64,000 nt of DNA from Pirellulales bacterium (GTDB taxonomy: Bacteria > Planctomycetota > Planctomycetia > Pirellulales > JADZDJ01): assembly GCA_963716135.1 (NCBI GenBank), contig OY970289.1, positions 4,047,744 to 4,111,743 on the forward strand, read 5' to 3'. The position numbers and the translations under genes are program-made. Shown here piece by piece: positions 34,549-60,860 of this stretch. Under the pieces are notes generated by a model. The model worked only from the letters and a program-made list of their open reading frames with translations, was not told the origin of the DNA and searched no databases. The first letter of the stretch is position 1. Each line of letters begins with the position of its first letter.

Positions 34549-34585
34549 CAGTACTTCCTGGAGTGGAGATCGCTAAACCCGACCA

Positions 34586-40871: not shown

Positions 40872-42821
40872 CTACCGATCCCGCCCACCGCCATCGCTGT
40901 GCGCCGTGCTAGCGGGCTTCAACCGCGACTTCAATTCCGTCTCGAGGTCCGTGATGTGAATGTTGCGGTTCACCACTTTCCCCTTGTCGTCGACCAGAAT
41001 CATGGTGGGCAACGTGAGAATGCCCATCTCGTTGGCCAACCGGCTATCCAATCCGCCCGTCTCGTACAACTGCGGCCAGGGCAGCCGGTTCTTGGTCAAA
41101 TAGTCGCTCAAATCGGCGAAGTTGTTGTCCAGGCTCACGCCGATCAGCGTGAAACCGTTCTTGCCGTACCGGGCATACATTTCTTTCAGCTGTGCCAGAT
41201 CGACTTTGGACGGTTCGCACCACGTGGCCCAATAGTCGATCAGCACGTATTTGCCGCGATACTTCGAAATATCTTCGACCTGGCCCAGCGTGTTTTTCGC
41301 GCGCAACTGCATCGGCTGACCGACGCTGTCCAGCCGCGTGATGGCGCCGCGGGCCTTCACCGCCGCCGAGCTGCCGCCGAAATCCGAAACCAACTGGCCG
41401 TACCACTTCTTGGCCTTCTCTTCCTGGCCGGCGAACTCTTGTGCCAAGCCAAGCTGCAGCAGGGCTTCGGCCGTATCGTTAGCCTTGGGAAAATCCTTGA
41501 CGAACTGTTCAAGATTTTCCAGCCATTCGGCTTGCACTTTCACAAAATCGATCTCGTGCTTTTGCAGCTTCGAGCCATAGTCGGCTTGCAAATAGCGATA
41601 TTTCACCGTCGGCGCCAAAGCCGCGTCGGCGGGATTGGCAGCCAATTTCTCGGCCAATGCCTTCAGCTTTTCCACGCCGGCCGGATAGGCGCCGGTCTGA
41701 GCGGCCGCACTGATGGCGTCGGCGAATTGCTTGATCCACTGCGGGCGATCTTTTTCCCCGATTTCGTCGGCGATTTGCAACATCAACTCCGCGCGGCGAT
41801 CGTTCAGTTTTGCCTGCTCGGCTTCGTTGGTGGCACGGCCCACGGCTTCGTCGAGCTTCGATAGCTCGTCCATCATCTTCTGCACTTGCTCGTTCGGATT
41901 GCCTTCTGCGGCGGTGGCGGTCGAAGATTCCGGACGAGTGGTCGTGTTGAAGAAGAAGCCGTCGGAATCGGCGATTTTCTCGGCCGATTCAGGAATCGAC
42001 GGGGCGTCGATCACTCGCCACGTGTCGCCCAATTTGACCAGCGTGCCAATCTGCACCTGGGCATCTTTGCCCTCGGTTTCGATCATCGCCAGCACGTTTT
42101 CATAGACCGTGATGTCCTTGCCGGCCGCATCGCCGGTGGGAACCAGGCCGGGCTTCGTGCCGCCGAAATGCACCCAATTCGTTTTGGGGCCAATGGCTTT
42201 TTGTTTGCGCACCACGTCGGCGAAACCGTCGGGCGCGGCCGTGATTTTGTCGTTGAGCTGCTTCGCTTTGGCGGCGCTCAGGCCTAGCGATTTGGCTTCG
42301 GCCGGCGTCAGCAGCACGCGGGCGAAGCGGGCGGGATCTTTGTCGCGGATTGCCAGCACTACTTCGGCGGTCACTTCCTCCGGCGAAATCGCCTTCCAAG
42401 AATCGACCTTACCGTCCTCCGCCTTATCAAGTCCCCACCGCGTGCCGGCCGTGTTTAGCCAGCGCGACTGATCGGCCTTGCCGTTGTAGTTCGAATCGAT
42501 GTCGCGGTACACTTCGATGCCATCCTTGAAATAGCTCCAGCGATCGACCACGTTGTCGCCGTTGGTGTCGACGAATTCACGCAGAATTTGCCCGTGCGGA
42601 TTGCGCACGACCCAACCCGTTTGGCCGTCCACTTTCTCCGCCTTGATGGTGCATTTCACGGCATCGGCAGAGCTGGGAATCTCGTAATCGACGTCTTTTT
42701 GGATGGGGGCGAGCTTCAGCGCCTGTTCGACGCTGGGCGCGGCGGCCTTGGCAAATGCCGGTAGAAAGCAGACGGAGGTGGCGACGGCCAATATTTGCAG
42801 TCGGCGAAGCGTGTGGGTCAT
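40872..42821 (-). CDS. secreted TlpA/thioredoxin-like protein with long N-terminal extension; active site WCEPS (CxxS)
   Basis: Signal MTHTLRRLQILAVATSVCFLPAFAKA. Calcium-binding-like VDTNGDNVVDRW...DSNYNGKAD. The C-terminal GKYVLIDYWATWCEPSKVDLAQLKEMYARYGKNGFTLIGVSLD is a thioredoxin fold. Confidence 0.75.
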   Translation of the reverse strand: MTHTLRRLQILAVATSVCFLPAFAKAAAPSVEQALKLAPIQKDVDYEIPSSADAVKCTIKAEKVDGQTGWVVRNPHGQILREFVDTNGDNVVDRWSYFKDGIEVYRDIDSNYNGKADQSRWLNTAGTRWGLDKAEDGKVDSWKAISPEEVTAEVVLAIRDKDPARFARVLLTPAEAKSLGLSAAKAKQLNDKITAAPDGFADVVRKQKAIGPKTNWVHFGGTKPGLVPTGDAAGKDITVYENVLAMIETEGKDAQVQIGTLVKLGDTWRVIDAPSIPESAEKIADSDGFFFNTTTRPESSTATAAEGNPNEQVQKMMDELSKLDEAVGRATNEAEQAKLNDRRAELMLQIADEIGEKDRPQWIKQFADAISAAAQTGAYPAGVEKLKALAEKLAANPADAALAPTVKYRYLQADYGSKLQKHEIDFVKVQAEWLENLEQFVKDFPKANDTAEALLQLGLAQEFAGQEEKAKKWYGQLVSDFGGSSAAVKARGAITRLDSVGQPMQLRAKNTLGQVEDISKYRGKYVLIDYWATWCEPSKVDLAQLKEMYARYGKNGFTLIGVSLDNNFADLSDYLTKNRLPWPQLYETGGLDSRLANEMGILTLPTMILVDDKGKVVNRNIHITDLETELKSRLKPASTAHSDGGGRDR

Positions 42822-42881
42822 CGGTACGATCCTCGTATAGCGATTAGCAGTTAGTTTGTAGGGGACTTTCACACCAACTAG

Positions 42882-43239: not shown

Positions 43240-43313
43240 GCGCGCATAGCTCAGTTGGTTAGAGCGCCACCCTGATAAGGTGGAGGTCCTTAGTTCGAAT
43301 CTAAGTGCGCGCA
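43240..43313 (+). tRNA. tRNA-Ile (anticodon GAU)
   Basis: GCGCGCA acceptor, GCTCAGTTGGTTAGAGC D-arm, CCACC-CTGATAA-GGTGG anticodon arm, CTTAGTTCGAATCTAAG T-arm, TGCGCGC-A. Confidence 0.9.
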
Positions 43314-43356
43314 CTATTTCGCAGAACCCTAATTCCTGAACTCTGAACCCTTCACC

Positions 43357-44557: not shown

Positions 44558-44829
44558 GTCTGGAAATACTGGTGAATGTTGCACGGTTTCGGGTATCTAT
44601 TGCTCCACTGGCACTTCTGACCATTCGGTTGAACGATCCATTCCGAAAAGTCACGAGTTTCTGCCTTCTTCCAGCCTACCGCCGGCAGCGTTAAACTTGA
44701 TCCCGCTGCAGTAAACTTCGGCAGGCGAGCCTCAAGAGTAGTAGGTACTCCTAACGGCTGCTGAAGTACGTCCCGCGCTGCATTGCGCGGGCGGCGAGAA
44801 TTAAACGAGTGACAGCGCGCAAAGCAAAT

Positions 44830-46695
44830 ATGGCGCAGAAGAAATACGACGACCTGAGCAAGGGAGAACTGATTCGCCTGCTCGAAACTCGCGACGGCCG
44901 CGATGCCACTCGATACGGCTTGGTCTGGGAGGCCAACGAGATCGAGCGCGATAAAGCCCTCAATGCCGACTTCGTCGCTCTCGACCTCGACGCCGAATTG
45001 TCCTGTCCCAGGACAGCGTCTGCGTGGAAAAATCTCATCATTGAAGGCGACAACTTCGATGCCCTCCGCTACCTCCGCATGACCTTCGCCGGCAGAGTGA
45101 AGTGCATCCTGATTGATCCGCCGTATAACACGGGCAAAAAGGATTTCATCTTCAATGACCATTTTGTCGGCGAGGATGATTTATGGCGATTCTCGACATG
45201 GTTGGAATTTCTCTATCAACGCCTCATGATTGCCCGCGATCTGCTGCGCGAAGACGGCGTGTTCCTTTGTTTCATCAACGATGAAAATCGCGCCAAGTTG
45301 GAATTGCTGCTTGACGAAGTGTTTAAAGGCCGGCGAATTGGCAGCTTTGTCTGGCGGACAAAGGACTCCGCTAACGATGCTGGCGGCAATCTCAGTCAGG
45401 TGCATGAACATGTGCTCGTTTATGCAAATCCGCTGTTTGCCTTTGCCGGCAAGACTTTGAGTTTGGATGATTATCGCAACCCAGACAACGACCCGGAAGG
45501 ACCCTGGACTCCACAGCCATTGACGAAAGCTGAAACATTTAAGACACGGGAAAATACTTATTATCCCATCCAAAATCCGGATACGGGCTATTGGTACCCG
45601 TGTGATCCTGAGCGTGTGTGGGCCTACGCGACTGAGACGAAACTAAAACCCGGCACGAAACTGCGATCGGACACAATTGAAGATCTAATTCGCAAGAAGG
45701 AAATCTACTTCCCGTTCTGCGGGCCGTCGGACGTAATGCAATGGGACACCCGAGAAGAATTGCTTGAAGCGGTCCGCCGTGGCGATGGCCCCATCCTACC
45801 CAAGAAGAAAACCCCATTGCTGCGGGAGGACTTGCCCGACTTTGATTTCTGGATTGGCAAGCCAATTGCGCCAGGCCGGCCGTCGCGGAAGGATTACTTA
45901 AAGCGGAAACAAAAGCTCGTTGCCCCCGTGAGCAGCTGGATCGCGGGACAAAACGAAGAGGTCGATTTCTTTTATGACGAACTCGATGAGCAACTTGAGT
46001 TGATGCGCTCACCGCGGGGTGGCGAAGGCACGGATGCTGTGAACGCGATACTTGGTACTAAAGCATTCAATCATCCCAAACCTCCCACACTCGTCCGCAA
46101 CCTCCTACGTCAATCAACTGGCCCGAATGATCTTGTCTTAGATTTCTTCGCCGGCAGTGGAACAACAGCGCAGGCCGTGCTGGAACTTAGCAAGTCTGAT
46201 AGTAATGATGGCGAACGGCGATTCATCCTTGTGTCTAATACAGAAGCCACGAAGGACGAGCCGGACAAAAACATCTGCCTGGATGTATGTAGGAAGCGAG
46301 TCGAGAATGTCATCAATGGGTATCGAAATACGCCAGGTGCGGGCGGCGACTTTGCCTACCTCCGCTGCCGGCGGATCGCGCCCGCCATGCTCACCGACAT
46401 CGACCATGCCCAGGTCTGGACGGCGTTGCAACTCACGCACATGCCGATGCTCTCGGTGCTTGATGACGCCAAGCCGCTGGCAATTGCCGATCATGACGAT
46501 CAGCGATTGATCTACATCCCGCATTTCCACGCAAAGGATGCAAGGGCGCTAGCCAAGGCAGTCAAACAAAGCCCAGCGGTCATCGTTTACACCTGGCAAC
46601 CTGATCTGGTGAGGGCCCGACTACGCGAGGCGAACAACGTGCAGGTCGAAGCCGTGCCGGAGAGCTTGGCTCGGCGGTTCGGAATGCGGATTTGA
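44830..46695 (+). CDS. mod: type III restriction-modification methyltransferase (Mod; beta-class N6-adenine/N4-cytosine MTase)
   Basis: Motif IV ILIDPPYNTG precedes motif I VLDFFAGSGTTAQAV, with a large variable domain between them. It is directly followed by a Res-like helicase-nuclease. Confidence 0.85.
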   Translation: MAQKKYDDLSKGELIRLLETRDGRDATRYGLVWEANEIERDKALNADFVALDLDAELSCPRTASAWKNLIIEGDNFDALRYLRMTFAGRVKCILIDPPYNTGKKDFIFNDHFVGEDDLWRFSTWLEFLYQRLMIARDLLREDGVFLCFINDENRAKLELLLDEVFKGRRIGSFVWRTKDSANDAGGNLSQVHEHVLVYANPLFAFAGKTLSLDDYRNPDNDPEGPWTPQPLTKAETFKTRENTYYPIQNPDTGYWYPCDPERVWAYATETKLKPGTKLRSDTIEDLIRKKEIYFPFCGPSDVMQWDTREELLEAVRRGDGPILPKKKTPLLREDLPDFDFWIGKPIAPGRPSRKDYLKRKQKLVAPVSSWIAGQNEEVDFFYDELDEQLELMRSPRGGEGTDAVNAILGTKAFNHPKPPTLVRNLLRQSTGPNDLVLDFFAGSGTTAQAVLELSKSDSNDGERRFILVSNTEATKDEPDKNICLDVCRKRVENVINGYRNTPGAGGDFAYLRCRRIAPAMLTDIDHAQVWTALQLTHMPMLSVLDDAKPLAIADHDDQRLIYIPHFHAKDARALAKAVKQSPAVIVYTWQPDLVRARLREANNVQVEAVPESLARRFGMRI

Positions 46696-46699
46696 ACTC

Positions 46700-49153
46700 A
46701 TGGCGATAATTACCCTCAAACCGTTCCAACAACAGGCCGTCGACAGTGCCATCGCGGTTTTCGACCACATGCGCTCGATTCTCGATACCGCCGGTGCGAA
46801 TGAAGAAAACCGCGCGACAGCGATTTACGACAACGGGTATCTGCTGATCGAAGCCCCCACTGGATCGGGCAAGACGCTGATGGCGGGGAACATCGTGGAG
46901 CGGGTAAGCGCGGCTGACCGCGTCGTCTGGTTCTGGTTTGCACCGTTTAAAGGCGTGGTGGATCAATCCGCCGCGTTTTTGCGAGAGCAGTTTCAAGGGC
47001 TGCGTCTGCGTACGATGATTGAAGACCGTAATCCGATTGGGACGCGCAGTGGGGATGTGTTCGTGACGACATGGGGACTGGTTGCCACCCGGGTGCGCGA
47101 CCGCAGAAGCGTCCGGCAGAGCGGCGAGCTAAATGGGAGCGTGGATGACTTGGTCGTTTCACTCCGCGAGCAGGGATTTCGCATCGGCGTTGTAGTAGAC
47201 GAAGCGCATCACGGATTCCACGGCGACACGCAGGCGGCAGTTTTTCTCCGAACCGTGCTCAAGCCGGAATTCACAATCCTTGTGACCGCCACGCCGGATG
47301 ACGCGGACTTGCGTGACCTTCAAGAACGGATGCAGATCGGCAACATTCACCGTGTAGGTGTGAGCAGAACTGACGCGGTGGGACCGGGACCGGCAGAAGG
47401 TTTGATTAAACGCGGCGTCAAAGTGATCGCGTGGCGGCTAGAAGAAGGATCGGATGCGCTGGTCGATTTCGAAACAACAGCGCTGCGGGACGGGGCGGAA
47501 CTTCACAAATTTCTGAAGGCCGAATTGCGGAGGGCGGGGATCAACTTGACGCCGCTGATGCTGGTGCAGGTCGATTCTAAGCCTAAGTCGGTCGAACGGG
47601 CAAAAGAAAAGTTGGTAGCGCTGGGATTCACCGAATCGCAGATCGCAATACACACGGCGGATGAGCCAGACGCGGGGCTCTTGGCACTGGCGAACGATGA
47701 GACGCGCGAGGTATTGATCTTTAAGATGGCAGTGGCTCTGGGATTCGACGCGCCACGGGCATGGGCGCTGGTCTCAATGCGAGCCGCGCAGGACGAGGAC
47801 TTTGGCGTGCAATTGGTAGGACGCATCCTTCGCGTGCATCGCCGACTGCAAGGAAAGGTCGTACCCGACGTATTGCGATACGGATATGTGTTGCTCGCAG
47901 ATATCGCCGCGCAAGGCGGACTCGATGCCGCCGGGCAGCGGATCAACCGCATGCGAACGCAGTACGCTACAGTTAGCCCGACAACGATTATCGTGCATGC
48001 GAGCGGACAGAATCTGGTGCAGTCGGTCAATGCGGGCGGACAACTCGTTTTTAACCCTACTCCGCCTGCAGGTGCGCTCTTCACGCCACCACCCACTCCG
48101 GTACCTGATTCAGAAGGCAATGTTGACCCAGCGCAAATGATGCTTTGGCAGACCTCGTGGGCTCCGACGGAGATGAGGGACACGTTGCGGGCGGCGCTGG
48201 TCTCGCCGCCGCCGGTGCTGGGGCAGTATTCGTACAGTCTGCGAGACGGCGTGCCGCGGAAGTTCAAGACTCAGGAATTTCCGGAGGATTGCGAGATTAC
48301 TGAAGAGGAATGCGCCGAGCACTTTGTTGTGGGAGCTGAAAAACTTCTCGCGGCTATACTCGGCAGCGACTCGGTGCGCGTGCAAAAGAAAACGATTGAG
48401 ATCTTCACGCAGCAAATCCAACTAGAGTTCAGCTACGCCCCCCCATCGCTGGAAGAAATGCAACGACGAGCGCTGAAGGCGTTGGTGAGTTGCGGTATGT
48501 TTAGCGCCAAAGAACTTCGCCGGGCCCTGGCGAATCGTCTATATCAGTTGCTCGCTGCCAAGGGTGTGGAAGATGCGAACGACCGGGATCGGGTATACCA
48601 ATATCTTGATGTGCTGCTGTCGCAGTATCCTCAATTGCTACGAGATGCGCAACGAGCGGCCCTGGCAGCAAAGGCCGAGGTCTTTGAAGCTGCTGAGTTG
48701 CCTGCGAATATCGAATCGCAAACACCCCTCTCGCCCTCTCCGCTTAATATCTATGGTATCTACCCGTCCAGCCTGAACTCTTGGGAGCGTCCGTTCGCCG
48801 AGTATCTCGATGCAGATGACACAAATACTGTCCTGTGGTGGCACCGCAACCTGCCGCACAAGGAGTGGTCCATAAATGTGCTGCTGGAATCGGGACGCGG
48901 ATTCTTCCCAGACTTCATCGTTGGCATCAATGATCGGCCGCGTGAAGACGGAGGATTGCTTGCCGACACAAAGTACGCTTACGAGACCGCAAGGGAGCTT
49001 CCGAAACTGCTGGCAGAGCACGCTGCGTATGGTCGCGTAGTGATCGTCACGAAAGACACGGCCCAAAGGTGGGTAGTCGCTGAGCGAGACCCGCATACGG
49101 GCGCGGGCCGAATAGGAAAGCCCTTTCGTATCTCTGATGCCGCGAGGTATTGA
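46700..49153 (+). CDS. res: type III restriction enzyme Res subunit (SF2 helicase plus PD-(D/E)xK nuclease)
   Basis: Motif I LIEAPTGSGKT, motif II VVVDEAHHG, and the C-terminal FPDFIV...LLADTKY nuclease-like motif. The start is 4 nt after the mod stop. Confidence 0.85.
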   Translation: MAIITLKPFQQQAVDSAIAVFDHMRSILDTAGANEENRATAIYDNGYLLIEAPTGSGKTLMAGNIVERVSAADRVVWFWFAPFKGVVDQSAAFLREQFQGLRLRTMIEDRNPIGTRSGDVFVTTWGLVATRVRDRRSVRQSGELNGSVDDLVVSLREQGFRIGVVVDEAHHGFHGDTQAAVFLRTVLKPEFTILVTATPDDADLRDLQERMQIGNIHRVGVSRTDAVGPGPAEGLIKRGVKVIAWRLEEGSDALVDFETTALRDGAELHKFLKAELRRAGINLTPLMLVQVDSKPKSVERAKEKLVALGFTESQIAIHTADEPDAGLLALANDETREVLIFKMAVALGFDAPRAWALVSMRAAQDEDFGVQLVGRILRVHRRLQGKVVPDVLRYGYVLLADIAAQGGLDAAGQRINRMRTQYATVSPTTIIVHASGQNLVQSVNAGGQLVFNPTPPAGALFTPPPTPVPDSEGNVDPAQMMLWQTSWAPTEMRDTLRAALVSPPPVLGQYSYSLRDGVPRKFKTQEFPEDCEITEEECAEHFVVGAEKLLAAILGSDSVRVQKKTIEIFTQQIQLEFSYAPPSLEEMQRRALKALVSCGMFSAKELRRALANRLYQLLAAKGVEDANDRDRVYQYLDVLLSQYPQLLRDAQRAALAAKAEVFEAAELPANIESQTPLSPSPLNIYGIYPSSLNSWERPFAEYLDADDTNTVLWWHRNLPHKEWSINVLLESGRGFFPDFIVGINDRPREDGGLLADTKYAYETARELPKLLAEHAAYGRVVIVTKDTAQRWVVAERDPHTGAGRIGKPFRISDAARY

Positions 49154-50530: not shown

Positions 50531-50545
50531 TAGGCGATACTACTC

Positions 50546-50636
50546 GGAAGGTGGTCCGCGTCTTGGTGGCGCAGCGGTCTTTAAAACCGCTGGAGGACCC
50601 GGTTTACACCGGCGGGTTTGATTCCCACGCCTTCCG
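50546..50636 (+). tRNA. non-canonical class II (long variable arm) tRNA-like gene, apparent anticodon UUA (would read the UAA stop), 8-bp acceptor stem; allo-tRNA/tRNA-Sec-like architecture
   Basis: By-eye fold: acceptor GGAAGGTG/CGCCTTCC (8 bp), anticodon stem CAGCGGT/ACCGCTG with 7-nt loop CTTTAAA, variable arm CCGG-TTTACA-CCGG, T-arm GGG-TTTGATT-CCC, discriminator G, then a T-run. Not verified with tRNAscan-SE. Confidence 0.55.
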
Positions 50637-50714
50637 TTTTTGCAGTTTAGGGCAAAATTACAGAAAACGCCAGTGAAATTACGAAACTAATTCTTTTTGC
50701 AATCGGTGCGCCCG

Positions 50715-51338
50715 ATGCTTGCATTTGTTGACGAATCCGGTGACCTAGGGATGAAGCTAGAATCTGGCTCGTCGGATTACTTCGGCGTGATCGCCGTATG
50801 GTTTCCTGACAAGGACGAGGCCCAGCGGTGCGACGATGCTATCGCCGCGTTGCGGACGAAAATACCGGTTCTCAAAACTGAATTTCATTTCACCAAGCTC
50901 AAGCACTACCACCGTGAGCAGTTTTTCGATTTGGTCAAAGGTTTTGATTTCCAGTATTTTGGTGTCTATTTGGATAAGCGCAAAATGGCCGAGAAGTCGC
51001 TCGGCTTCCCAAGGCCGTTCACCCACATGGCCGTGCAGTACCTATTCGCCGGCATGGCCGACAAGTTATCCGATGTGATTATCACAATCGACGAAACGGG
51101 CAGCAGCGAGTTTCGCAAGGCACTGGCGAAAGACTTGCCGAAGGCCGTCAACGGCAACGGGAATCCTCGCGCGATCAAGAAGGTAAAGTGCGCACGATCT
51201 AATGGTAACAATCTGCTGCAAATGGCCGATATGGTGTGCGGCGCCGTGTGCCGATCGATAGGAAAAAAACAACCACACCCGGACGCTTACCGTGAGATGA
51301 TTCATCACAAAGAATTGATCGTGACGATCTTGCCATAG
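50715..51338 (+). CDS. DUF3800 domain protein
   Basis: N-terminal MLAFVDESGD motif and C-terminal NNLLQMADMVCGAV motif are typical of DUF3800. About 207 aa. Confidence 0.7.
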   Translation: MLAFVDESGDLGMKLESGSSDYFGVIAVWFPDKDEAQRCDDAIAALRTKIPVLKTEFHFTKLKHYHREQFFDLVKGFDFQYFGVYLDKRKMAEKSLGFPRPFTHMAVQYLFAGMADKLSDVIITIDETGSSEFRKALAKDLPKAVNGNGNPRAIKKVKCARSNGNNLLQMADMVCGAVCRSIGKKQPHPDAYREMIHHKELIVTILP

Positions 51339-51648
51339 GCGCATAAAAAACCCGCAGCCTATCCCTTTCGGGCACGCACGCCAGTACGGCGACAGTTCGG
51401 CTACGGGCCAATTACATCTATAGAATATCGTCTAGGCTCGCTGAGTCAACTCAAGAAAACCCGTGTTTTTTCTGGTTTTCACAGAAACATCGTCCCGCCA
51501 GCACCTTAGGATGCCCTCGTTCTTTTGGCGGTCAAAGCGACAGTCGGGCGGTTGCGAGAGACCCATGCTTGCAGGACGCGGTCTTGGCCCGTATGTAAGT
51601 CACAGCCCCACCCACTGACAGCGCAGCATAGCGGACCTCTCGCTACTC

Positions 51649-51740
51649 GGAGAGTGTTCCGCGTCTTGGTGGCGCAGCAGCCTTATACCCTGCCGTAGGA
51701 GTCGGCAACCGCCGATAGGGTTCGATTCCCCCTCTCTCCG
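51649..51740 (+). tRNA. second non-canonical class II tRNA-like gene, apparent anticodon UAU (AUA codon); paralogue of the 50546 element
   Basis: It shares the 5' block TCCGCGTCTTGGTGGCGCAGC with element A. Acceptor GGAGAGTG/CTCTCTCC (one U-U mismatch), anticodon stem GCAG/CTGC with loop CTTATAC (C-C closing), variable arm TCGGC-AACC-GCCGA, T-arm GGG-TTCGATT-CCC, discriminator G. Confidence 0.5.
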
Positions 51741-52746: not shown

Positions 52747-53235
52747 AGTGCTACCCCTCAGATTTTAAGCGTAATTGGGCGGGTGGTGTTACAGACTAAC
52801 ACGGCTGTTACGCGTGCAAAGGGCATTTGCTTAACTTTTTTCGGCATTTCTGCATTCGTAAACGAAGGCAATTTGCTGTCATCGGCTTATGCCCGCCTGT
52901 GCGCTTCTAGCGGGACAGTGCCCAGATCCGCCCCGCAAACTCGGGCACATCCGAGTCGTGATAGATCTGTAATTCTTATGAAATGGGATCGCAAGCAACG
53001 ATACCTGCGCGGTCATCACGGTTTAGAAATGCGCGACATGATCGCGATGCCGGGTTCAGGAACTAAATTTCTTTCACTCCTGCGCCATAAATCACGGACG
53101 CGGCTTAGCTAGGCGCTTCCGCTTCCTTCTGGCATCGGCCCCGGCGCAGCTTGCCGAGCTGCCTTTCGGGGCATCCCGATGACGGCCTGCATGCTCGCAG
53201 GTCGTCTTTCTTCCTCTTAGCCTGAGGAGACAGCC

Positions 53236-53391
53236 TTGGATATCACCTTGTTGATTTGCTGTTCGCTGACCTTGCTGTTGGCCGTCGCGGCGCTGGTGCG
53301 CGAGGTGCGCCTGCGACGAGCCCTGCAGGCCTTGTTGGCCCGCATTCTCGCGCTGGAGGGATTATGTCTCACGGAAAACCTTCCGCCCTGA
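53236..53391 (+). CDS. possible 51-aa TM peptide (TTG start)
   Basis: GAGGAG RBS 7 nt upstream of the TTG. LDITLLICCSLTLLLAVAALV then an amphipathic helix. It overlaps the next gene start and is below the ORF-track size cutoff. Confidence 0.3.
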   Translation: MDITLLICCSLTLLLAVAALVREVRLRRALQALLARILALEGLCLTENLPP

Positions 53392-53897
53392 TGATGATCG
53401 CTCTTCTGCTGGCGATGATCGCCGCAGAGGGCTGCGGCAGTGATAGTGATCGAGTGGCCCAGATTGCCCTGGAAGCATCGCAGCGGCAAGCCGCCCAAGA
53501 CCAGGAAATGGCCAAGCTCAACCAAACGGTCGCTGAAGGTACCCGGCAGATGACCGCGGAGCGCGGCGAAGCCAATCGCCAGCTACTGGCCATGGAGCAG
53601 AACCTGCAGACGCAGCGTGATGACCTGGACGCCGAGCGCCGCTCAATGGGCGCTGCACGCCGCCGGGAGTCGCTCTTGGCGCCGGTGCTGACGACGATTG
53701 GGGCACTTATCGTGTGTGCGCTGCCGCTGGTGCTGTGCTGGTATCTGCTGCATGGACTGGGCGCCGAGTCCTCGGAGACCGAGGTGACCGGCATGCTGAC
53801 TGAGCAGCTTTTGCTACGCGACGATCCGCTGCCGCTGGGGCACAGTCCCCTAGCGGAGCTGCCCGGGCCCGATCCTGAGAAGCTTGAAGGGTCGTAG
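53364..53897 (+). CDS. lipoprotein with coiled-coil region and C-terminal TM helix
   Basis: MSHGKPSALMMIALLLAMIAAEGCGSD lipobox. Q/E/R-rich coiled coil. TM LLAPVLTTIGALIVCALPLVLCWYLL. Confidence 0.5.
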   Translation: MSHGKPSALMMIALLLAMIAAEGCGSDSDRVAQIALEASQRQAAQDQEMAKLNQTVAEGTRQMTAERGEANRQLLAMEQNLQTQRDDLDAERRSMGAARRRESLLAPVLTTIGALIVCALPLVLCWYLLHGLGAESSETEVTGMLTEQLLLRDDPLPLGHSPLAELPGPDPEKLEGS

Positions 53898-54012
53898 CTG
53901 GTACCTCGTGCTTTGGCGGCTGTTGCTGTCGGAGCGTTCTCTAGAACGTTTTTACCCAGGCGGTACTGCGCAGCATGCGCCACCGCCGCCACTCAAAAGA
54001 AAGGATTTTGCC

Positions 54013-54195
54013 ATGACCCAGGTCGAGCTGGAACGCGAAGTGGCACAGCACACCGGCGAATCAGTCTGCACGATTCACCGGCGGGGCTTCAGTGTTGCCC
54101 AACCGCATTACCCACCGCCGCTAGTGGTCGATTGGGATCGGCTGGAGGCCGAGCGGCATGGGATGGCCAGGGACCGCAAGGATTCAGCCCGCTGA
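54013..54195 (+). CDS. small (60-aa) protein, paralogue of 56962..57150
   Basis: [26 protein letters not shown]...[15 protein letters not shown] shares T-Q-(V/I), VxQxTGxSV and PPxVVDWxxLxAxR with the ORF at 56962. It lies directly upstream of the Ubl gene. Confidence 0.45.
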
Positions 54196-54259
54196 TTCGG
54201 CTCTTTGTCAGCAAGCGATGCAACTTACTAACTTCCTTTTTCGAAAATCGGAGGCCTGC

Positions 54260-54478
54260 ATGAAGATTTTGTTCATTAACAACGACGGCGGCGGCTTTGC
54301 CGACTACATCGACGTGCCTGCGGGAATCACCGTGGCGACACTCTTCCAAGAGCGGATTCCGCACGGCAAGCCGCAGGACTTCTTGATCCGCGTCAACCGC
54401 CAGCCAGTGGCGGCCGACTATGTGCTGCAGGAAGGGGATCGCTGCAGCTGCAGCCCCACCAAGATCCAAGGTGCCTGA
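54260..54478 (+). CDS. ubiquitin-like beta-grasp protein (ThiS/MoaD-like), C-terminus ...KIQGA
   Basis: 72 aa: [11 protein letters not shown]...[13 protein letters not shown]...[32 protein letters not shown]. ThiS-like pattern (NG..., G.TV..L, VN...V......L.DGD) with a penultimate Gly. Confidence 0.65.
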
Positions 54479-54561
54479 AAACATTCATTTGAGACCTGCC
54501 TCGGGGCCTGTCGCGCTTCGACGCGGCGGCCCCGCTTTTTTGTATCCCGACGGAGATTGAT

Positions 54562-55601
54562 ATGCCGATTTACCACAAACCGTTTTGGCGCGCAGCAGGC
54601 CTCGTCTGCGGGCAGCTGGCCAAAGCTGCCGCCGGAAGCCAAACCTTCACCTTGCCAACTTCCCAGTGGCAGACACTGGTGAAACTGGTGCGCGATATCC
54701 AGCTGGCCGGCGATCGTGGCTGGCGCCACGCAGCCCGCCGCCGGCACGAGGAATTGCTATCGGAGTTGGACTATTTTGAGCGGTCGATTTCGCAGCTGGT
54801 CGATCAGCGGCGGGACACACGGCCGGCAAACGTGCTGGCTAGCGACACCGAGGTGTACCGAGACCTGGTGGCCTTGGACGGCGAGTTTGCCGAGGTCCGC
54901 TGCGATTTTGAAGAGCAGGTCATCGCCGTTACCACCGATCCGGTGGTGCTGGATGGGATCGACCTAGGCCGTTTCCAGATCCGACTCAATTGGCAGCAGC
55001 TTGGAGATGCCCAGCCCTACACGATCGTGGCGTTGGATCCCAATCCGGCGGCAGCCAACTCCGCCGTCACTCATCCCCATGTGAGCGACGAGATCCTGTG
55101 TGAAGGAGACGGGCGCCGGACGATTCAGGCTGCGCTGCGCAGGGGCGGCTGGCGGATTTCTTTACGATCGTCGATCGCTTGCTGCGCACGTACGCCGAGG
55201 GGAGGGCCTACGTCGAATTGAACAACTGGAACGGCGTCACCTGCCACGATTGCGGCTGCGTGGTTTCGGAAGATGAACGCTGGTGCTGCGAGCGCTGTGA
55301 GGAGACGATCTGCTGCGATTGCGGCGGTTGCTGCCAGCATTGCGATCGGACCTACTGCAGCGGTTGTTCTGCCGAGTGTCCGCTGTGCGAGGGGAGTTGC
55401 TGTGCTAGTTGCTTGGAACGTTGCCCATCGTGTGGGCGGCGTGTTTGTCCCGATTGCCTGTTACCGGACGATAACCACTGCACAAGGTGCCATGAAGAAC
55501 TACAACCACAAACTGAATCTGATGCCCAAGCCGAGCCGGCCCTCCAACCCGAGCCTGCGGTTCACGCCGACGGCCTGGGCCAAGCTGCTGTATCTGCGTG
55601 A
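54562..55601 (+). CDS. E2-like (UBC-fold) protein fused to a C-terminal Cys-rich multi-CxxC domain; apparent 1-nt frameshift near 55139
   Basis: [15 protein letters not shown] gives an HPx motif with a Cys 8 residues downstream, as in E2 enzymes and Prok-E2 families. After the join (..[27 protein letters not shown]..) there is an 85-aa region with about 9 CxxC pairs ([42 protein letters not shown]). The 3' end overlaps the JAB gene by about 110 nt. Confidence 0.65.
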
Positions 55602-56190
55602 CTGTGGTGAAACCGAAGTGGGCGGCTTCGGGATTGCCGAAACGGAGGATCTATTGCTGGTCACTGATTTGACGTTGGTCGACCAGGTCTGCTCCTTTGC
55701 CACGGTAGCGTTTGACGACGCGGCCGTGGCGGATTTGTTTGACGAGCAGGTGGATCTGGGATTGCGCCCGGCACAGTTCGCCCGAATCTGGGCGCATACT
55801 CATCCCGGCGATTCAGCCGATCCAAGTTCCGTCGATGAGGAAACGTTTGGGCGCGTATTTGGCGGAACCGATTGGGCGGTGATGTTCATTCTGGCCCGCG
55901 GCGGAGAAACCTACGCTCGCTTGCGATTCAACAACGGCCCCGGCGGCGCTATCGAACTGCCGGTTCAGGTGGATTACTCGCAGCCTTTTGATGCCAGTGA
56001 CCATGAGGCTTGGGAGGCTGAATATCTGGCGAAGGTGCAGCAGAAAATTTGGCCGCCTGCGGAGAAGGCGCAATTGGATGGAAGCGCCGCCAAAGGCGAT
56101 GTCCACGAAGAAGAGCAGGTGGCCGCGGCGGTTTCGGAATTTTCTGATTGGAACCCTTACTGGATGGAGGATGATCCCTGGTATGACTGA
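55492..56190 (+). CDS. JAB/MPN (JAMM) metallopeptidase
   Basis: EVGGFGIAE ... [23 protein letters not shown] gives E...HxHx7Sx2D, the JAMM zinc site. Confidence 0.8.
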
Positions 56191-56839
56191 CCAACTAAAT
56201 CGTTTTGTACGCCAGGCGGAACTGGTACCGATGGACCGACTGGCCCAGGTATCGGCCAGCGTAATCGGCTGCGGCGCCATCGGCCGCCAGGTGGCGCTGC
56301 AGTTGGCTTCAATTGGAATTCGCAAGCTGCAACTGATCGATTTCGACGAAGTGGATGCGACCAACGTCACGACCCAAGGCTACCTGCACGCTGAGATTGG
56401 TATGCCCAAAGTCGTGGCGCTGGCTGCGGCAGTGACGAGGATCGATCCGGAGATCGAGATCCAACAGGTTGACGAGCGGTTTCGCCCAAAGATACCGGTG
56501 GAAGATGCCGTGTTCTGCTGCGTCGATTCGATCGACACACGGGCGGCGATCTGGCGCGCGGTTCAGGGGCGATGCCGGTTTTGGGCGGATGGGCGGATGC
56601 TGGGTGAAGTGATCCGCATTCTGGTTGCAGCAGATCCAGAAGGGCGGCGGCACTACCCGTCGACCTTGTTTGCCGCGGCTGAAGCTCAGCAGGGCAGCTG
56701 TACCGCCCGTAGCACGATCTATTCCGCCAGCGTTGCGGCCGGATTTATGGTCCATCAATTCACGCGCTGGCTTCGGGGACTGCCGGTGGATAAAGACGTT
56801 TCTTTGAATCTGCTGGCCAGTGAGCTGGCCGTGGTCTGA
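56183..56839 (+). CDS. E1-like ThiF-family adenylyltransferase (minimal, 218 aa)
   Basis: [19 protein letters not shown] (GxGxxG), [15 protein letters not shown] (ThiF DxD..N motif). The start ATG overlaps the JAB stop (ATGACTGA). Confidence 0.8.
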
Positions 56840-56961
56840 CAGGCAACGCTGGCCGCAGTTCTGGCCGGATCGCAGGTTCGCCTTCGGCCGCTGAGCGCGC
56901 ACGGCTGAGCAACGATCGTACCAAAATTCAACACGCACCCAACTATTTCGGAGGGAAGGAT

Positions 56962-57150
56962 ATGACTGCTACTCAAATCAAGCGCACCGTATCACAAGTC
57001 ACTGGAAAATCAGTGCCTGAATGCGTCCCTCGCGGCTGCTACCTGGTGGGCACACTCAGAGCAGACGATCGCTCCGATACAGCTGATCGGCCGCCGCAGG
57101 TCGTCGATTGGAACGAACTCGATGCCTGGCGCTACAAGTTGACTGAGTAA
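56962..57150 (+). CDS. small (62-aa) protein, paralogue of 54013..54195
   Basis: GGAGGGAAGG RBS; MTATQIKRTVSQVTGKSV...RPPQVVDWNELDAWRYKL. It is the last gene before the operon terminator. Confidence 0.5.
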   Translation: MTATQIKRTVSQVTGKSVPECVPRGCYLVGTLRADDRSDTADRPPQVVDWNELDAWRYKLTE

Positions 57151-57158
57151 AGCACCAA

Positions 57159-57195
57159 GACGCCCAAGTACCACCAGTGCTTGGGTGTCTTTTTT
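57159..57195 (+). terminator. rho-independent terminator of the Ubl operon
   Basis: GACGCCCAAG-N11-CTTGGGTGTC followed by TTTTTT. Confidence 0.7.
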
Positions 57196-57554
57196 AGCTC
57201 TGCCGCGACCTGCTCGTCCGATTGTCAGGACCTTCGCAGCCCGCGGCGGCGGTACTTCCTGACGATCGGCTAACGGCGCACCCGAAGCTCGTCGGTGCTG
57301 GTCGAGGTAGCAGGACCGCCGGGAATTACAGAATCGAGAACCGCTAATTTGACGGCGATGCGGCACTTTGAATTCCGAGATGAGTTAATTGGAATTAGCC
57401 AAATCGGCATTTTGCGCATGTGTCACGCCCGCAACGCTTTCCCACTAAAGGAAGGTTTTCGGGACGCTGAATGTCCCGGGAGGGAGCCGCGAATTTCCTG
57501 AGCCGCTGTCCGTCGGCTACAATCACCCTGCCGTCGCGTGGGGAGGAAATCTCG

Positions 57555-58382
57555 ATGAAACCGCATGAACTGCTTACTGTCTTTCTGAAGGCAATCGGGA
57601 TTTGGTTTTTTGTCAATGGTTTGGAAATGCTACCTGATGCGATGCGCTCCGTTCATAAGTATGACAATGCGGAAGAGTTTTTTTATTTGATGATGGGCAG
57701 TTTCGGTTTTCCCGCAGTTGCGATTATCGCTGGAATGTGGTTGTTTGTCACAACAGATATTTTCGTCGGGCTTGCATTCCCCAACGCGATCTTGGCGGAC
57801 GTTAAGAATACCAAACGTGATTTGGCTCCGAGTGTACCGTACCCCGATCTCTTGTCGGTCGTATTGAAAGCAATTGGAGCATTTAAGATTGTGCATGGAA
57901 TTGCAACAGTGCCGTTAGATATTGTGATTGCTCATCGACCAGCGAAGTTCGAACCATTCTTTTATTGGATAATCGATTCTTTCGGATTCGCAGCAATCTC
58001 AATCATTTTTGGTTTCTGTTTGGTGTTCAAAACAGGTTGGTTTGTGCGGTTTGCATATCCAGAGGCCAATCCTGCAAATAGCGGCGAAACAAAAGGAGAC
58101 GTTCTGACGAATTCATCGCATGAATTGCTCGGAGTCATTACGAAAGCGCTGGGAGTCTGGTTCCTTGTTTATGGGGTGGCGAGGTTGCCAAGTAAAATTA
58201 ACCGTGCTTTTATTGTCCCAACTGTGGAACCACTTCTTCCCACAATTCGGGACACGATCGCGCCTCCAGCAATTGTGATCATCTGTGGCTGCGTGTTGTT
58301 TTTCGCCACGAATTGGGTCGTGGGATTGGCGTTTCCTGAACCCGTTCCAGCGGAAGACGATGAAACAATCGACAGCGCGTAG
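57555..58382 (+). CDS. membrane protein built from three about 90-aa internal repeats (2 TM each)
   Basis: Repeat starts HELLTVFLKAIGIWFFVNG / PDLLSVVLKAIGAFKIVHG / HELLGVITKALGVWFLVYG. Each repeat ends (W)FVxxA(F/Y)P(E/N). AT-richer than the core genes. Confidence 0.6.
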   Translation: MKPHELLTVFLKAIGIWFFVNGLEMLPDAMRSVHKYDNAEEFFYLMMGSFGFPAVAIIAGMWLFVTTDIFVGLAFPNAILADVKNTKRDLAPSVPYPDLLSVVLKAIGAFKIVHGIATVPLDIVIAHRPAKFEPFFYWIIDSFGFAAISIIFGFCLVFKTGWFVRFAYPEANPANSGETKGDVLTNSSHELLGVITKALGVWFLVYGVARLPSKINRAFIVPTVEPLLPTIRDTIAPPAIVIICGCVLFFATNWVVGLAFPEPVPAEDDETIDSA

Positions 58383-58733: not shown

Positions 58734-60860
58734 ATGCGCCGTAGCTTCAACCAAATGACATCGGTTTCATTGCGGAACGCACTTGCATGCTTGCGGTTGG
58801 CTGTCTTCGGAGTTACGCCAACGCTCTTCGCCGCAAATGCTTGGGCGGCCGGTCCGGTCGAATTGCAGCGCACGATTGCCACGCTCGAATCGTGCGAAGG
58901 CAAAATCGAGTCAGCGCAGTGGAAGGCGCATCTCTCCGTCGTCGAACTGGCCAACCCAAACGACATCACGTCGATCATCAAGACAAGGCCCGAAAAGATT
59001 GAGGCTGCCGTAGTTTGGGATCGAAAGAGAAAGCGCATTCGCGTCGACTATCAAAGTGTTCTCCAATGGCAGAATGGAACCGCCCCATATCTTTCGGATC
59101 GCCAAGGAATATGTTTCGACGGCGCACTGTACCGATCTTGGAGGATTGGCAAAGCCGGGACCGAGATTCCAAAAGAAAACGACGACTTCGCAGAAGGCAT
59201 TGTTCGCAACGATCGTCCAGAGATTACGCAGCTCGAAATGCGTTCTTGGGGAATGGAATATTTGCCGCCGTTTTTCGACGATCGTTCGGTCGGTCACGAC
59301 CCCCAACCGCTATCGCAACTCCTCCGCCACGCGAAGGCAGACGGCATTTCAATAACGATCGTGGAAGATGACGCTGCAATCTGGACGATCGCCATCAACG
59401 ATCAGAAGAGATATCACGACATGATGGAGATTCGGATCGATCCAACGAAAGGCTGCAAACTATTGGGGATTAAATGTCTTTCGACAAAGGAACATGTTGT
59501 CTGGTGCGAGCTTCAAATTGCCTCACGCGAGGTGTCGCCGGGCATTTGGGCGCCCGATCAATGGTCCTGTGTGTACTTGCTCGACAAACCCTGCGTGGCA
59601 TCGATCTGGAAGTATTCCGACGTGGCAATCAATGTGAGGCTGCCCGAAAATGCATTTGAATTCAATTTTCCAGCAGGCACTCGAGTCGATGATCGGGTAA
59701 GTAATACCAGATACAAGATTGGAGCGGTTGAAAACGACGAAGCGAAATCAGCCGATGCGGCGGATTCGAAATCAGCCAGCTTGGAAGTGAATTTCGACAT
59801 GTCGCGCGCGGATGCGCGGCGCTTCAAAGCCGTCACGGTACGAGCGCAACAGCGGTCCGCCGGTGAGAACACCTATCTAGATATCGCAAGCCATACGGCC
59901 TCGAATTTCGAGCCATTCACGCTGGCGAAACTGCCTGCAGGCGACTATCGGGTTGTAGTCAACACCACGCCGGCAGAAGATGGGATAAAACCCTCGACAG
60001 GCGAACCCAATGCGGGACGGTTTTCCTACTTCAATCAGATTTCGCTGCACTCCGGAGAAACGCAGCGAGTGGCCGTCCAGGTGCCACCGCTCGATCTAAA
60101 AGCATTCCGCGGCCAACGATCGGCGACGATCCGAATTGAAACAGCCGACGGTCGACCCGCAGCCGTCGGCCGGGAATGCAGCGTCCAGTTTGACGACGGC
60201 CACTATGGCGATTTGCCGGTCTTTACGGGGAAGGTGCCGGAATCGGGCGAAGTGATATTGAAAGAGATTACCGACGAGCGGCCTCCGACCATCGATGCTC
60301 GCGATCCATATTCGATCACGATCGACAAATTTCGCTTGGGCACATTCGGATTTCGCTCGACGGAGGCATCAGAGCAATTTAAATTTGCATGGTCGCCGCA
60401 AGCTGGCGATCTTGCGCCAGAAGTCGAATTATTAAATACGGCGGATACAAAGACGATTAAGCTCAGCGACCTGCGAGGCAAAGTCGTGTTGGTCGATTTT
60501 TGGGCCACAGATTGTGCGATGTGTCCCTCAGCATTGAAGATGCTCGATCAACTGGTTGCCGAACAGGCGGACGGATGGAAAGATCGCGTAGTGGTGGTGC
60601 CGCTAAGCATCGACGACGAGGCAACGCAAGCGAAGCAGCGCCTGGTTGAACTTGGGTTCACGCATCTCACGGCGTATTGGAGTGGAAGCGAGGGGAAAGT
60701 CGGCTGGGATTCTCCCGCCGCGCACGCCTATGTTGTGCATGGGGTTCCGGAATCATTGCTGATCGATCGCGATGGGCACATCATTTGGCGCGGCTACCCG
60801 GCAATGGATAATGGTGGTAATCGGACGTTAGAAGCACGAATTGAATCCGCTTTGAAGTAA
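58734..60860 (+). CDS. secreted multidomain protein with C-terminal TlpA-like thioredoxin domain (CxxC = CAMC)
   Basis: Signal ...LAVFGVTPTLFAANAWA. C-terminal GKVVLVDFWATDCAMCPSALKMLDQL...VVVVPLSIDDE...GVPESLLIDRDGHIIW. Confidence 0.75.
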   Translation: MRRSFNQMTSVSLRNALACLRLAVFGVTPTLFAANAWAAGPVELQRTIATLESCEGKIESAQWKAHLSVVELANPNDITSIIKTRPEKIEAAVVWDRKRKRIRVDYQSVLQWQNGTAPYLSDRQGICFDGALYRSWRIGKAGTEIPKENDDFAEGIVRNDRPEITQLEMRSWGMEYLPPFFDDRSVGHDPQPLSQLLRHAKADGISITIVEDDAAIWTIAINDQKRYHDMMEIRIDPTKGCKLLGIKCLSTKEHVVWCELQIASREVSPGIWAPDQWSCVYLLDKPCVASIWKYSDVAINVRLPENAFEFNFPAGTRVDDRVSNTRYKIGAVENDEAKSADAADSKSASLEVNFDMSRADARRFKAVTVRAQQRSAGENTYLDIASHTASNFEPFTLAKLPAGDYRVVVNTTPAEDGIKPSTGEPNAGRFSYFNQISLHSGETQRVAVQVPPLDLKAFRGQRSATIRIETADGRPAAVGRECSVQFDDGHYGDLPVFTGKVPESGEVILKEITDERPPTIDARDPYSITIDKFRLGTFGFRSTEASEQFKFAWSPQAGDLAPEVELLNTADTKTIKLSDLRGKVVLVDFWATDCAMCPSALKMLDQLVAEQADGWKDRVVVVPLSIDDEATQAKQRLVELGFTHLTAYWSGSEGKVGWDSPAAHAYVVHGVPESLLIDRDGHIIWRGYPAMDNGGNRTLEARIESALK

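Follow-up and report, generated by a model that had tools for sequence, protein, structure and literature searches.

Bacterial operons that resemble ubiquitination systems (CBASS Cap2/3, Bil and Bub) have lately been shown to conjugate proteins, and they bear on the origins of eukaryotic ubiquitin. Cysteine-dependent conjugation has been demonstrated for the Bil system and for that of Caldiarchaeum subterraneum (10.1101/2023.09.26.559546; PMC5654768; PMC6043591). BilC has been shown to trim the pro-form of the Bil ubiquitin-like protein (Ubl; 10.1101/2023.09.26.559546), and the trimming of pro-ubiquitin by Rpn11 has been shown for the Caldiarchaeum system (PMC5654768, PMC6043591). The Bil E1, BilD, is defined by an inactive and an active adenylation domain (IAD and AAD) together with a helical CYS domain (10.1101/2023.09.26.559546). 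Here we describe a locus with features of these systems in a Pirellulales bacterium (GenBank assembly GCA_963716135.1, contig OY970289.1, positions 4,047,744 to 4,111,743). The whole stretch analysed, 64,000 nucleotides long and hereafter called the window, holds four tightly packed genes that the original prediction had read as a Ubl, an E2-like protein, a JAMM peptidase and an E1. We give about an even chance to the view that the four genes form a cassette for ubiquitin-type protein conjugation, one copy of a kind that is borne by mobile elements and specific to the Planctomycetota, with a likely Bil-like role in defence or exclusion.

The four open reading frames (ORFs) are present as predicted, and their arrangement recurs widely. 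A scan with an E2 motif, taking one genome per GTDB species, returned 120 relatives, from which the best 80 loci were kept. All four genes occur, with order (Ubl, E2, JAMM, E1) and strand conserved, in 57 of these 80 loci, the remaining 23 being short or cut contigs together with about two degenerate copies; the recurrence indicates that the cassette ORFs did not arise by chance. The label Planctomycetota (Pirellulales, Planctomycetaceae, Phycisphaerae and Sedimentisphaerales) applies to 78 of the 80. The E2 family numbers 3184 representatives after 50% clustering at E<=0.001 (1250 at E<=1e-30), and at 90% identity the homologues of the Ubl and of the JAMM peptidase (JAB) fall into 3381 and 3378 clusters, respectively. 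About 10 genomes among the 80 loci carry two to four copies of the cassette. The genome of the window has a second copy on the same 4.25-Mb contig, with a Ubl (P0244) and a JAB (P0165) that share 79% and 68% identity with those described here. Four copies (L030, L041, L045 and L046 in our numbering of loci) occur in the metagenome-assembled genome (MAG) of Planctomycetes bacterium GWF2_41_51. In the isolate Stieleria tagensis TO1_6 the cassette is found on two contigs of ~1.9 kb (1933 and 1936 bp; L065 and L070), whose nearly equal lengths suggest a repeat that broke the assembly.

The Ubl gene (54260-54478; this and all other features of the block lie on the forward strand) encodes a 72-residue protein ending in ...TKIQGA, as had been predicted from its KIQGA terminus. 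An AlphaFold2 model based on 63 homologues shows a beta-beta-alpha-beta-beta arrangement with a pLDDT of 93.1. The top structural match found by Foldseek was Caldiarchaeum ubiquitin (6fj7; E=6.8e-4, TM-score 0.71), and the top matches were all beta-grasp modifiers or carriers, among them Caldiarchaeum ubiquitin, RnfH, MoaD, SAMP1, SUMO, ubiquitin and TtuB, with a Foldseek probability of 1.00 for Caldiarchaeum ubiquitin, MoaD, SAMP1, SUMO and ubiquitin. At the level of sequence, the match to Pfam ThiS reached only E=0.077, and a profile search of the PDB with the Ubl returned just spurious designed helical proteins. The conserved C-terminus of the family reads ...TPTKIEGA (E/Q-G-A), with G71 and A72 invariant in the 63 sequences, and is followed by an unconserved tail of 0-30 residues; the Ubl of the window and a few others stop exactly at the alanine. 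What was originally read as a glycine followed by a single extra residue is in fact an invariant Gly-Ala, to which the family as a whole adds tails of variable length. That such tails follow an invariant Gly-Ala implies trimming in most members of the family, the mature end being either Gly71 or Ala72.

The E2-like gene of the window is divided between two reading frames, and the analyses of this protein are based on the frame-corrected sequence or on the homologue P0001, which is 59% identical. The 5' part of the gene (54562-55146) encodes three N-terminal helices and a ubiquitin-conjugating (UBC)-like core with T170-H-P-H173 and C180, and the 3' part (55137-55601), in the other frame, encodes the last helices of this core, 10 CxxC pairs and a C-terminal tail. 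In the model of P0001 (pLDDT 90.9) the order of secondary structures is that of the UBC fold: three helices (6-86) are followed by a helix (95-108), a beta-meander (111-157), the strand and loop that carry HPH (169-173), Cys180 and two helices (182-208), after which come short hairpins bearing the CxxC pairs and a last helix. The extension that precedes the UBC-like core is helical and of ~90-95 residues, shorter than the ~130 originally proposed. All of the top 39 PDB matches to the model by Foldseek are UBC E2 enzymes (Rad6, UbcH5, UBE2S and others), with weak scores (E=0.04-0.3 and none <=0.001; probability <=0.85; TM-score ~0.45-0.53 on the target). The motif T-H-P-H-V-x5-L-C-E-G-D-G, noticed in the ORF that starts at 54562, places Cys180 seven residues past H173. 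Residues T170, H171, P172, H173, C180 and G182 are invariant across 90 E2 sequences, as is G184 in a set of 26, and no histidine is conserved after Cys180. Pfam UQ_con, Prok-E2_A-E and Prok-RING, the last two having been put forward as checks of the original prediction, gave no match in the 90 members (E<=0.05), and the E2 of the window has no Pfam UQ_con or Prok-E2 match at E<=1. A search of the PDB with the E2 profile found zinc-finger matches only and no E2 enzymes. Comparison of the E2 profile with human UBE2D2 (an approximate query sequence) by hhalign aligned only VTHPHV with IYHPNI at a probability of 0.2, and is unusable as evidence of homology.

The C-terminal cysteine-rich domain is borne out by the homologues. 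Of the 20 cysteines that make up its 10 conserved CxxC pairs, 18 are invariant in the 90 sequences and the other two are conserved in at least 90%, the pattern being CxxC-x11-[CxxC-x4-CxxC-x3]x4-...-CxxC. Weak profile matches were obtained to the B-box of MID1 (E=0.0015) and to TFIIH p44 (E=0.005), while Pfam Siva was detected in 11 of the 90 members and the ANCHR B-box in two; neither zf-RING nor Prok-RING matched the domain.

The gene that follows encodes a JAMM/MPN+ metallopeptidase (55492-56190, with the start uncertain between 55402, 55492 and 55522). The JAMM motif recognized at the outset is present in this ORF, and its residues E42, H102, H104, S112 and D115 (E...HxHx7Sx2D) are invariant, as is the candidate catalytic cysteine of the E2. 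By profile the closest solved relatives are yeast Rpn11 and the Rpn11-like protein of Caldiarchaeum (E=0.002-0.004), and the match to Pfam Prok-JAB (E=0.022) scores 15.1 bits against a cut-off of 25. In the window the JAB frame shares an unusually long stretch, 80-200 nt, with the 3' end of the E2 gene; 51 of 76 loci show a similar overlap, the aligned part of which has a median length of 53 nt. The conserved tail of the E2 (...LGQ....A) and the conserved N-terminal helix of the JAB are encoded by the same DNA (55402-55601; L001-L080). At its other end the JAB gene overlaps the start of the E1 gene at 56183-56190, in ATGACTGA, as had been noted in the original prediction.

The E1-type adenylyltransferase (56183-56839) is a minimal one, with 218 residues that include the GCGAIGRQ and IDFDEVD already remarked on. 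Its match to Pfam ThiF (E=2.3e-26, residues 17-200) is above the cut-off and constitutes its single domain, and members of the family are 200-240 residues long. Invariant positions comprise G29xGxxG, D53, D55, R120, D136-G-R138 and G171-x-C173-T174. In the PDB the protein is approximately equidistant from PaaA, ThiF, MccB, MoeB, BubCD, UBA5 and UBA7 (E=1e-15 to 1e-11), and it falls far below the cut-offs of the NCBIfam ThiF and MoeB equivalogs (80 versus 159 bits and similar). Cys173 is placed tentatively on the crossover loop, by analogy with UBA5, ATG7 and non-canonical E1s of the Cap2 type.

It should be emphasized that the E2 of this copy is not encoded by one uninterrupted ORF, a point missed by the original prediction. 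The ORF from 54562 ends at 55221 and yields 219 residues, and the cysteine-rich part lies in a different frame (ORF 55179-55601). Adding one G at the GGGG run at 55142-55145 restores a reading frame of 346 residues. The corrected protein matches 233 database proteins; among the 120 matches listed, most are of 330-360 residues and cover >90% of the query. Three homologues aligned by tblastn locate the frame switch at this site, with residues 1-195 in one frame to 55146 and residues 193-346 in the other from 55137, and the corrected junction agrees with the family consensus, including the invariant R196 and D199. Programmed frameshifting was considered and rejected, since the homologues are all encoded in a single frame and the site, a simple G4 tract, contains no slippery heptamer. 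The E2 gene of the window is thus either inactivated by a 1-nt frameshift or mis-sequenced at a G homopolymer.

The biochemistry of the families named above suggests how the products of an intact cassette might act together. The Rpn11-like JAMM peptidase would trim the tail of the Ubl after ...K-I-E/Q-G-A, and would probably also reverse the conjugates. The ThiF-type E1, presumably a homodimer, would adenylate the Ubl's C-terminus and then take the Ubl onto Cys173, from where it would move to Cys180 of the UBC-like E2. Because the E1 is without a ubiquitin-fold domain (UFD), the three-helix N-terminal domain of the E2 is a possible E1-docking surface. The array of 10 CxxC pairs, with ~5 putative Zn sites, could be the E2's own E3-like or target-recognition module, steering transfer to a target.

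Among described systems Bil offers the nearest parallel in layout. Both have four separate genes in the order Ubl-E2-JAB-E1, Cys-based E1 and E2 enzymes, no separate E3 gene and a location in variable islands, and in both the Ubl has residues beyond the reactive C-terminus, which implies pre-processing by the peptidase. The components themselves differ, however. The E1 described here is a single adenylation domain of 218 residues, in contrast with the three-domain architecture of BilD, while the E2 has the motif HPH...C where that of Bil Type II has CEHH, and is extended by an N-terminal helical domain and a 10xCxxC zinc array, neither of which is present in Bil E2s. In addition the Ubl is single-domain with a Gly-Ala end, the JAB is nearest to Rpn11 and the host range is Planctomycetota. 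The proposal of a Bil-like variant is therefore upheld by the conserved catalytic residues and the gene order, and is not upheld by the architecture of the E1 or by profile links; the cassette shares the Bil order but is not demonstrably Bil. The outcomes named beforehand as refuting that proposal were not observed, since the E2 candidate models as a UBC-like fold, albeit with weak structural scores, and its cysteine and the JAMM motif do not vary among homologues. Within PADLOC the E1 matches CBASS E1-E2 models only and the JAB gives E>=0.004, in a 2023 library that may not hold Bil models, and NCBIfam returned nothing past generic ThiF and weak JAB.

The Caldiarchaeum operon, which encodes ubiquitin, E1-like and E2-like proteins, a small RING finger protein and an Rpn11-like peptidase, resembles the cassette in other respects. 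The Ubl is matched best in structure by the ubiquitin of this operon (6fj7), the solved proteins closest to the JAB come from the Rpn11 family, the E2 model finds its matches, if weak ones, among canonical UBC enzymes, a putative zinc-finger module accompanies the E2, and the Ubl is made with a tail that in Caldiarchaeum is cleaved by a JAMM enzyme. In contrast, the zinc module of the cassette is fused to the E2 and is a putative array of ~5 Zn sites rather than a single cross-brace RING; the E1 is without both a Cys domain and a UFD, Pfam UQ_con is not matched, the Ubl ends in GA and not GG, and the system is bacterial, borne by mobile elements and multi-copy. Thus, the best solved matches of the Ubl, JAB and E2 are canonical archaeal and eukaryotic components, albeit by small margins and with an E1 that is much simpler. 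It could be argued from this that the cassette is a self-contained machine comprising E1, E2, E3 and deubiquitinase, with the fused multi-zinc array as a RING/B-box-like ligase, closer to the archaeal and eukaryotic system than are Bil, CBASS and Bub, which in its full form, with the neighbouring AAA protein of the Cdc48/FtsH class, would 'tag and unfold', and whose E1 of 218 residues would be the smallest known to charge an E2. We consider this improbable.

Comparison with the PRTRC systems (operon type 6d; Iyer et al. 2006) is instructive as these also combine a standalone Ubl, an E2-like protein, a JAB and a short ThiF-type E1 in a conserved mobile-element block, and DUF2958 occurs near some loci. 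The E2 of type 6d lacks the histidine at the HPN position, whereas HPH is invariant here, and the cassette has no JAB-N domain or ParB and belongs to another taxon. When the PRTRC models TIGR03735-TIGR03742 were searched only PRTRC_ThiF was hit, its score of 28.8 bits being far from the cut-off (144.75), and nothing was obtained for Ubl, E2 or JAB. The E1s of UBA5, ATG7, Cap2 and BubCD resemble that of the cassette in that their adenylation domain is short and no separate Cys domain is present, and presumably in having the reactive residue on the crossover loop (here Cys173). Cap2 and BubCD differ in that no E2 or JAB is fused to the E1 of the cassette, and its candidate catalytic residues are cysteines where Bub has Tyr/Ser. 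CBASS Cap2/Cap3, 6A-MBL and Bub differ more generally, the cassette consisting of four separate proteins with no CD-NTase, MBL or DUF6527 in the flanks. The cassette is thus not PRTRC, CBASS, 6A-MBL or Bub. Leaving aside Burroughs, Iyer and Aravind 2011 (on prokaryotic RING fingers), no description of the cassette family was found in the searchable literature, and Pfam Prok-RING, Prok-E2 and Prok_Ub were all negative for the cassette.

The four genes form part of a tight block at 53.2-57.2 kb in which all genes are on the forward strand. At its start lies a small transmembrane (TM) ORF of a family that we term c29 (53224-53437, with a 51-aa ORF at 53236-53391), located by tblastn of the member in L001, which is 84% identical to the window over 43 residues (53224-53352). 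It is succeeded by the gene for a membrane-anchored coiled-coil protein, family c16 (53256-53897), which c29 adjoins in six or more loci. The c16 protein clusters with homologues of 12 loci, in which the cassette is always downstream of c16 on the same strand. Its sequence suggests a lipoprotein-like N-terminus and a C-terminal TM helix, with the true start probably internal (MSHGKPSAL...), and it has no Pfam or PADLOC match. Two small ORFs, sA (54013-54195; 60 residues, with conserved TGE, GF and DWD) and sB (56962-57150; 62 residues), bracket the four genes and are paralogues (BLASTP E=1e-8, 33% identity), as was foreseen. Homologues of sA were found by tblastn beside the cassette in 27 of the 80 loci, upstream of the Ubl in 22 and downstream of the E1 in five, and sB matches the same places in related loci; sA has no match in Pfam, NCBIfam, PADLOC or PHROG. 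Past sB an intrinsic-terminator-like structure (57157-57201), comprising a hairpin (57157-57191) with a 15-bp stem and 5-nt loop and then a T-run, agrees with the terminator initially placed near the end of the block and probably marks the end of the transcription unit. A second terminator-like hairpin is situated just 5' of the block (53181-53206), and the presence of hairpins at both ends makes a single transcription unit of ~4 kb plausible. A scan of 53000-57600 for sigma-70 promoters found none, the sigma-70 consensus being uninformative for Planctomycetota.

The wider surroundings are those of an accessory island with defence-related genes, in line with the original prediction. The G+C content of the window is lower from ~44 kb onward, and the cassette is in this low-GC stretch to the right of a tRNA-Ile gene (43240-43314). 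Between the two are a type III restriction-modification (R-M) pair (44809-49153, forward strand), apparently intact, with Mod of 628 residues (N6_N4_Mtase) and Res of 817 residues (ResIII), and a DUF3800 gene (50697-51338). Directly past the latter, on the reverse strand, is a DUF3800-IX RNA motif (51345-51409; RF02968, 67 bits versus a gathering score of 36.8). The broken tRNA reported in this region corresponds to a tRNA-like gene of 93 nt (50545-50637, forward strand), to which ARAGORN assigns the anticodon TTA, which would read the stop codon UAA; in Rfam it comes closest to tRNA-Sec (42.6 bits, just short of the gathering score of 47). A partial copy of this gene (51643-51705; 63 nt, 78% identity) is found 1.1 kb downstream, such that the two copies bracket the DUF3800 gene. 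Two large proteins that look paralogous and have thioredoxin/AhpC-like C-termini flank the island (40872-42872, reverse strand; 58734-60860, forward strand). The large ORFs that were searched in the region from 40 to 61 kb gave no Pfam match to an integrase or recombinase, and a search for att-type direct repeats of the 3' end of tRNA-Ile, by which the island might have been delimited, found none.

The role of the cassette most likely lies in conflict between the element or its host and other invaders, as Bil-like antiviral defence or exclusion; the Bil precedent and the setting in a variable island, in the window beside R-M genes, point this way and make a defence role plausible. Several observations weigh against the reading of the locus as a conjugation cassette with such a role. 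The E1 is too short to contain a Cys domain or a UFD, which makes the transfer from E1 to E2 conjectural, and alignment of its C-terminal half with solved E1s by PDB profile gave nothing useful, leaving the placement of the Cys173 loop unconfirmed. The Ubl terminates in Gly-Ala rather than Gly-Gly, the fold of the E2 is called from the model of a homologue with Foldseek E values of 0.04-0.3, no sequence profile ties this protein to UBC or Prok-E2 families, and the similarity of the zinc array to B-box and RING domains is weak. The E2 of the window copy is broken, and PADLOC, through which the defence assignment was to be checked, returned nothing for the Ubl, E2, sA or c16. Furthermore, in 20-25 of the 46 long loci the cassette stands last, on the 3' side, in a conserved block of genes that share its strand, and such a module looks like the backbone of an element rather than defence cargo. 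The upstream genes of the block encode a small TM protein (often c29, as first gene), a TM coiled-coil protein, DUF1257, a Toprim-like protein that weakly resembles the Toprim region of GajA, an AAA ATPase (PF00004; matched over its full length to the phage family phrog_8638, E=3e-84; IetA-like in PADLOC), two unknowns of 317 and 86 residues and sA. Loci with the block include L013, L016, L024, L028, L051, L057, L063, L064, L066 and L080, where it lies ~0.3-5.5 kb upstream of the E2, and Phycisphaerae-type loci have a different upstream block, with DUF2958. These features raise the alternative that the same enzymology serves the mobile element, as a backbone module analogous in function to the PRTRC cassette of proteobacterial plasmids and integrative and conjugative elements, where it would modify proteins of the element or host so as to regulate replication, partition or establishment or to counter host defences, an alternative that we regard as rather unlikely, although several strands of evidence favour it. 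In addition to the co-linearity with the blocks that contain the phrog_8638 AAA protein or DUF2958, a beta-clamp-like gene is found downstream of the cassette in some loci, and genes of mobile elements (ParA, a TrwC relaxase, serine recombinases, a tyrosine integrase and transposases), which form part of the case for the main interpretation as well, occur within 10 kb. In L083 an island of ~10 kb, set between metH and housekeeping genes, holds ParA, a STAND-like ATPase and a large serine recombinase along with the cassette. A tyrosine integrase gene lies downstream of the cassette in L084, and upstream of it in L082 are genes for a serine recombinase, TrwC relaxase and IstB. A survey of 100 flanking ORFs encountered integrases, resolvases, transposases and some defence genes as well as ordinary host genes. 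That copies within one genome diverge is more in keeping with separate elements than with a single system of the host. Distant variants also occur on viral contigs near genes that by eye resemble those for terminase, portal and tape-measure proteins. One of these (L085; IMGVR_UViG_3300038435_000233) has an E2 of 222 residues without the N-terminal helices, adjoins two serine recombinases and is flanked by portal- and tape-measure-like ORFs; the other (L086; IMGVR_UViG_3300035130_000347) has an E2 of 590 residues with terminase-, MoxR-AAA-, VWA- and RNase H-like flanks, all judged by eye. However, these are only two of the 2.9 million viral contigs in IMG/VR. Moreover, in a short form of the locus, comprising the window, L001, L006 and L081-L084, the TM proteins are followed directly by sA or the Ubl, and the retention of the cassette where the AAA/DUF1257 block is absent indicates that it can stand alone. 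Elements of this kind commonly carry defence systems too, and the embedding of the cassette in mobile elements fits an element-serving role as well as it does defence.

Two further explanations concern the pathway itself and the state of this copy. The Ubl and E1 could belong to a pathway like those of ThiS/ThiF or MoaD/MoeB, in which sulfur is carried or a cofactor made, given that ThiF and MoeB are among the best NCBIfam and PDB relatives of the E1, that MoaD and TtuB are among the Foldseek matches of the Ubl, and that some Ubl homologues have precomputed ThiS Pfam matches and bear names such as 'sulfur carrier protein ThiS' and 'molybdopterin converting factor'. We reject this role as very unlikely. 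All scores against the ThiF and MoeB equivalogs are far under the cut-offs, the E2-like protein with its invariant HPH...C and the JAMM peptidase are obligatory partners, and the Ubl ends in GA plus a tail and not in GG. The location in mobile elements and the multiple copies also speak against it, and no genes for thiamine, molybdenum cofactor or tRNA thiolation were found in the window or in the flanks of the 80 loci, a result that bears out the original statement that no sulfur-transfer genes are adjacent and extends it to the neighbourhoods of homologues, where no thiamine, molybdopterin or sulfur-transfer operons were seen. A more serious contender, if still a doubtful one, is that the window copy is a decaying, non-functional remnant with a real frameshift, in an old island that has an insertion sequence fragment and lacks an integrase and the AAA module. 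The frame break at 55142-55145, the failure to detect an integrase, a recombinase or an att repeat, and the second, divergent cassette in the same genome are consistent with decay. Set against this, the lesion is a lone 1-nt change in a G homopolymer, the other five ORFs of the cassette are all intact, and loci from long-read MAGs (L001, L019, L077, L081 and L082) have similar isolated breaks in the Ubl, JAB or E1, which point to homopolymer sequencing errors. Elsewhere in the window a gene with a MotA_ExbB domain (33719-34572, reverse strand), upstream of an intact ExbD gene, is apparently split over two frames; this may be a second indel, in which case sequencing error would be favoured as the cause of the E2 frameshift.

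The locus represents a family of ~3200 E2 representatives at 50% identity that is nearly confined to one phylum and of which Pfam, NCBIfam and PADLOC see only a generic ThiF domain. Its combination of a canonical-looking E2 site, fused to a putative five-zinc array, with a 218-residue E1, an Rpn11-like peptidase and a Gly-Ala Ubl is not known from other systems. Should the cassette prove active, it would provide a compact model for transfer from E1 to E2 without a Cys domain or a UFD, and would allow the function of an E2-fused zinc array as an E3 to be tested. An active cassette would also give, in the Planctomycetota, where almost nothing is known of such matters, a first functional handle on mobile elements and the conflicts in which they take part.

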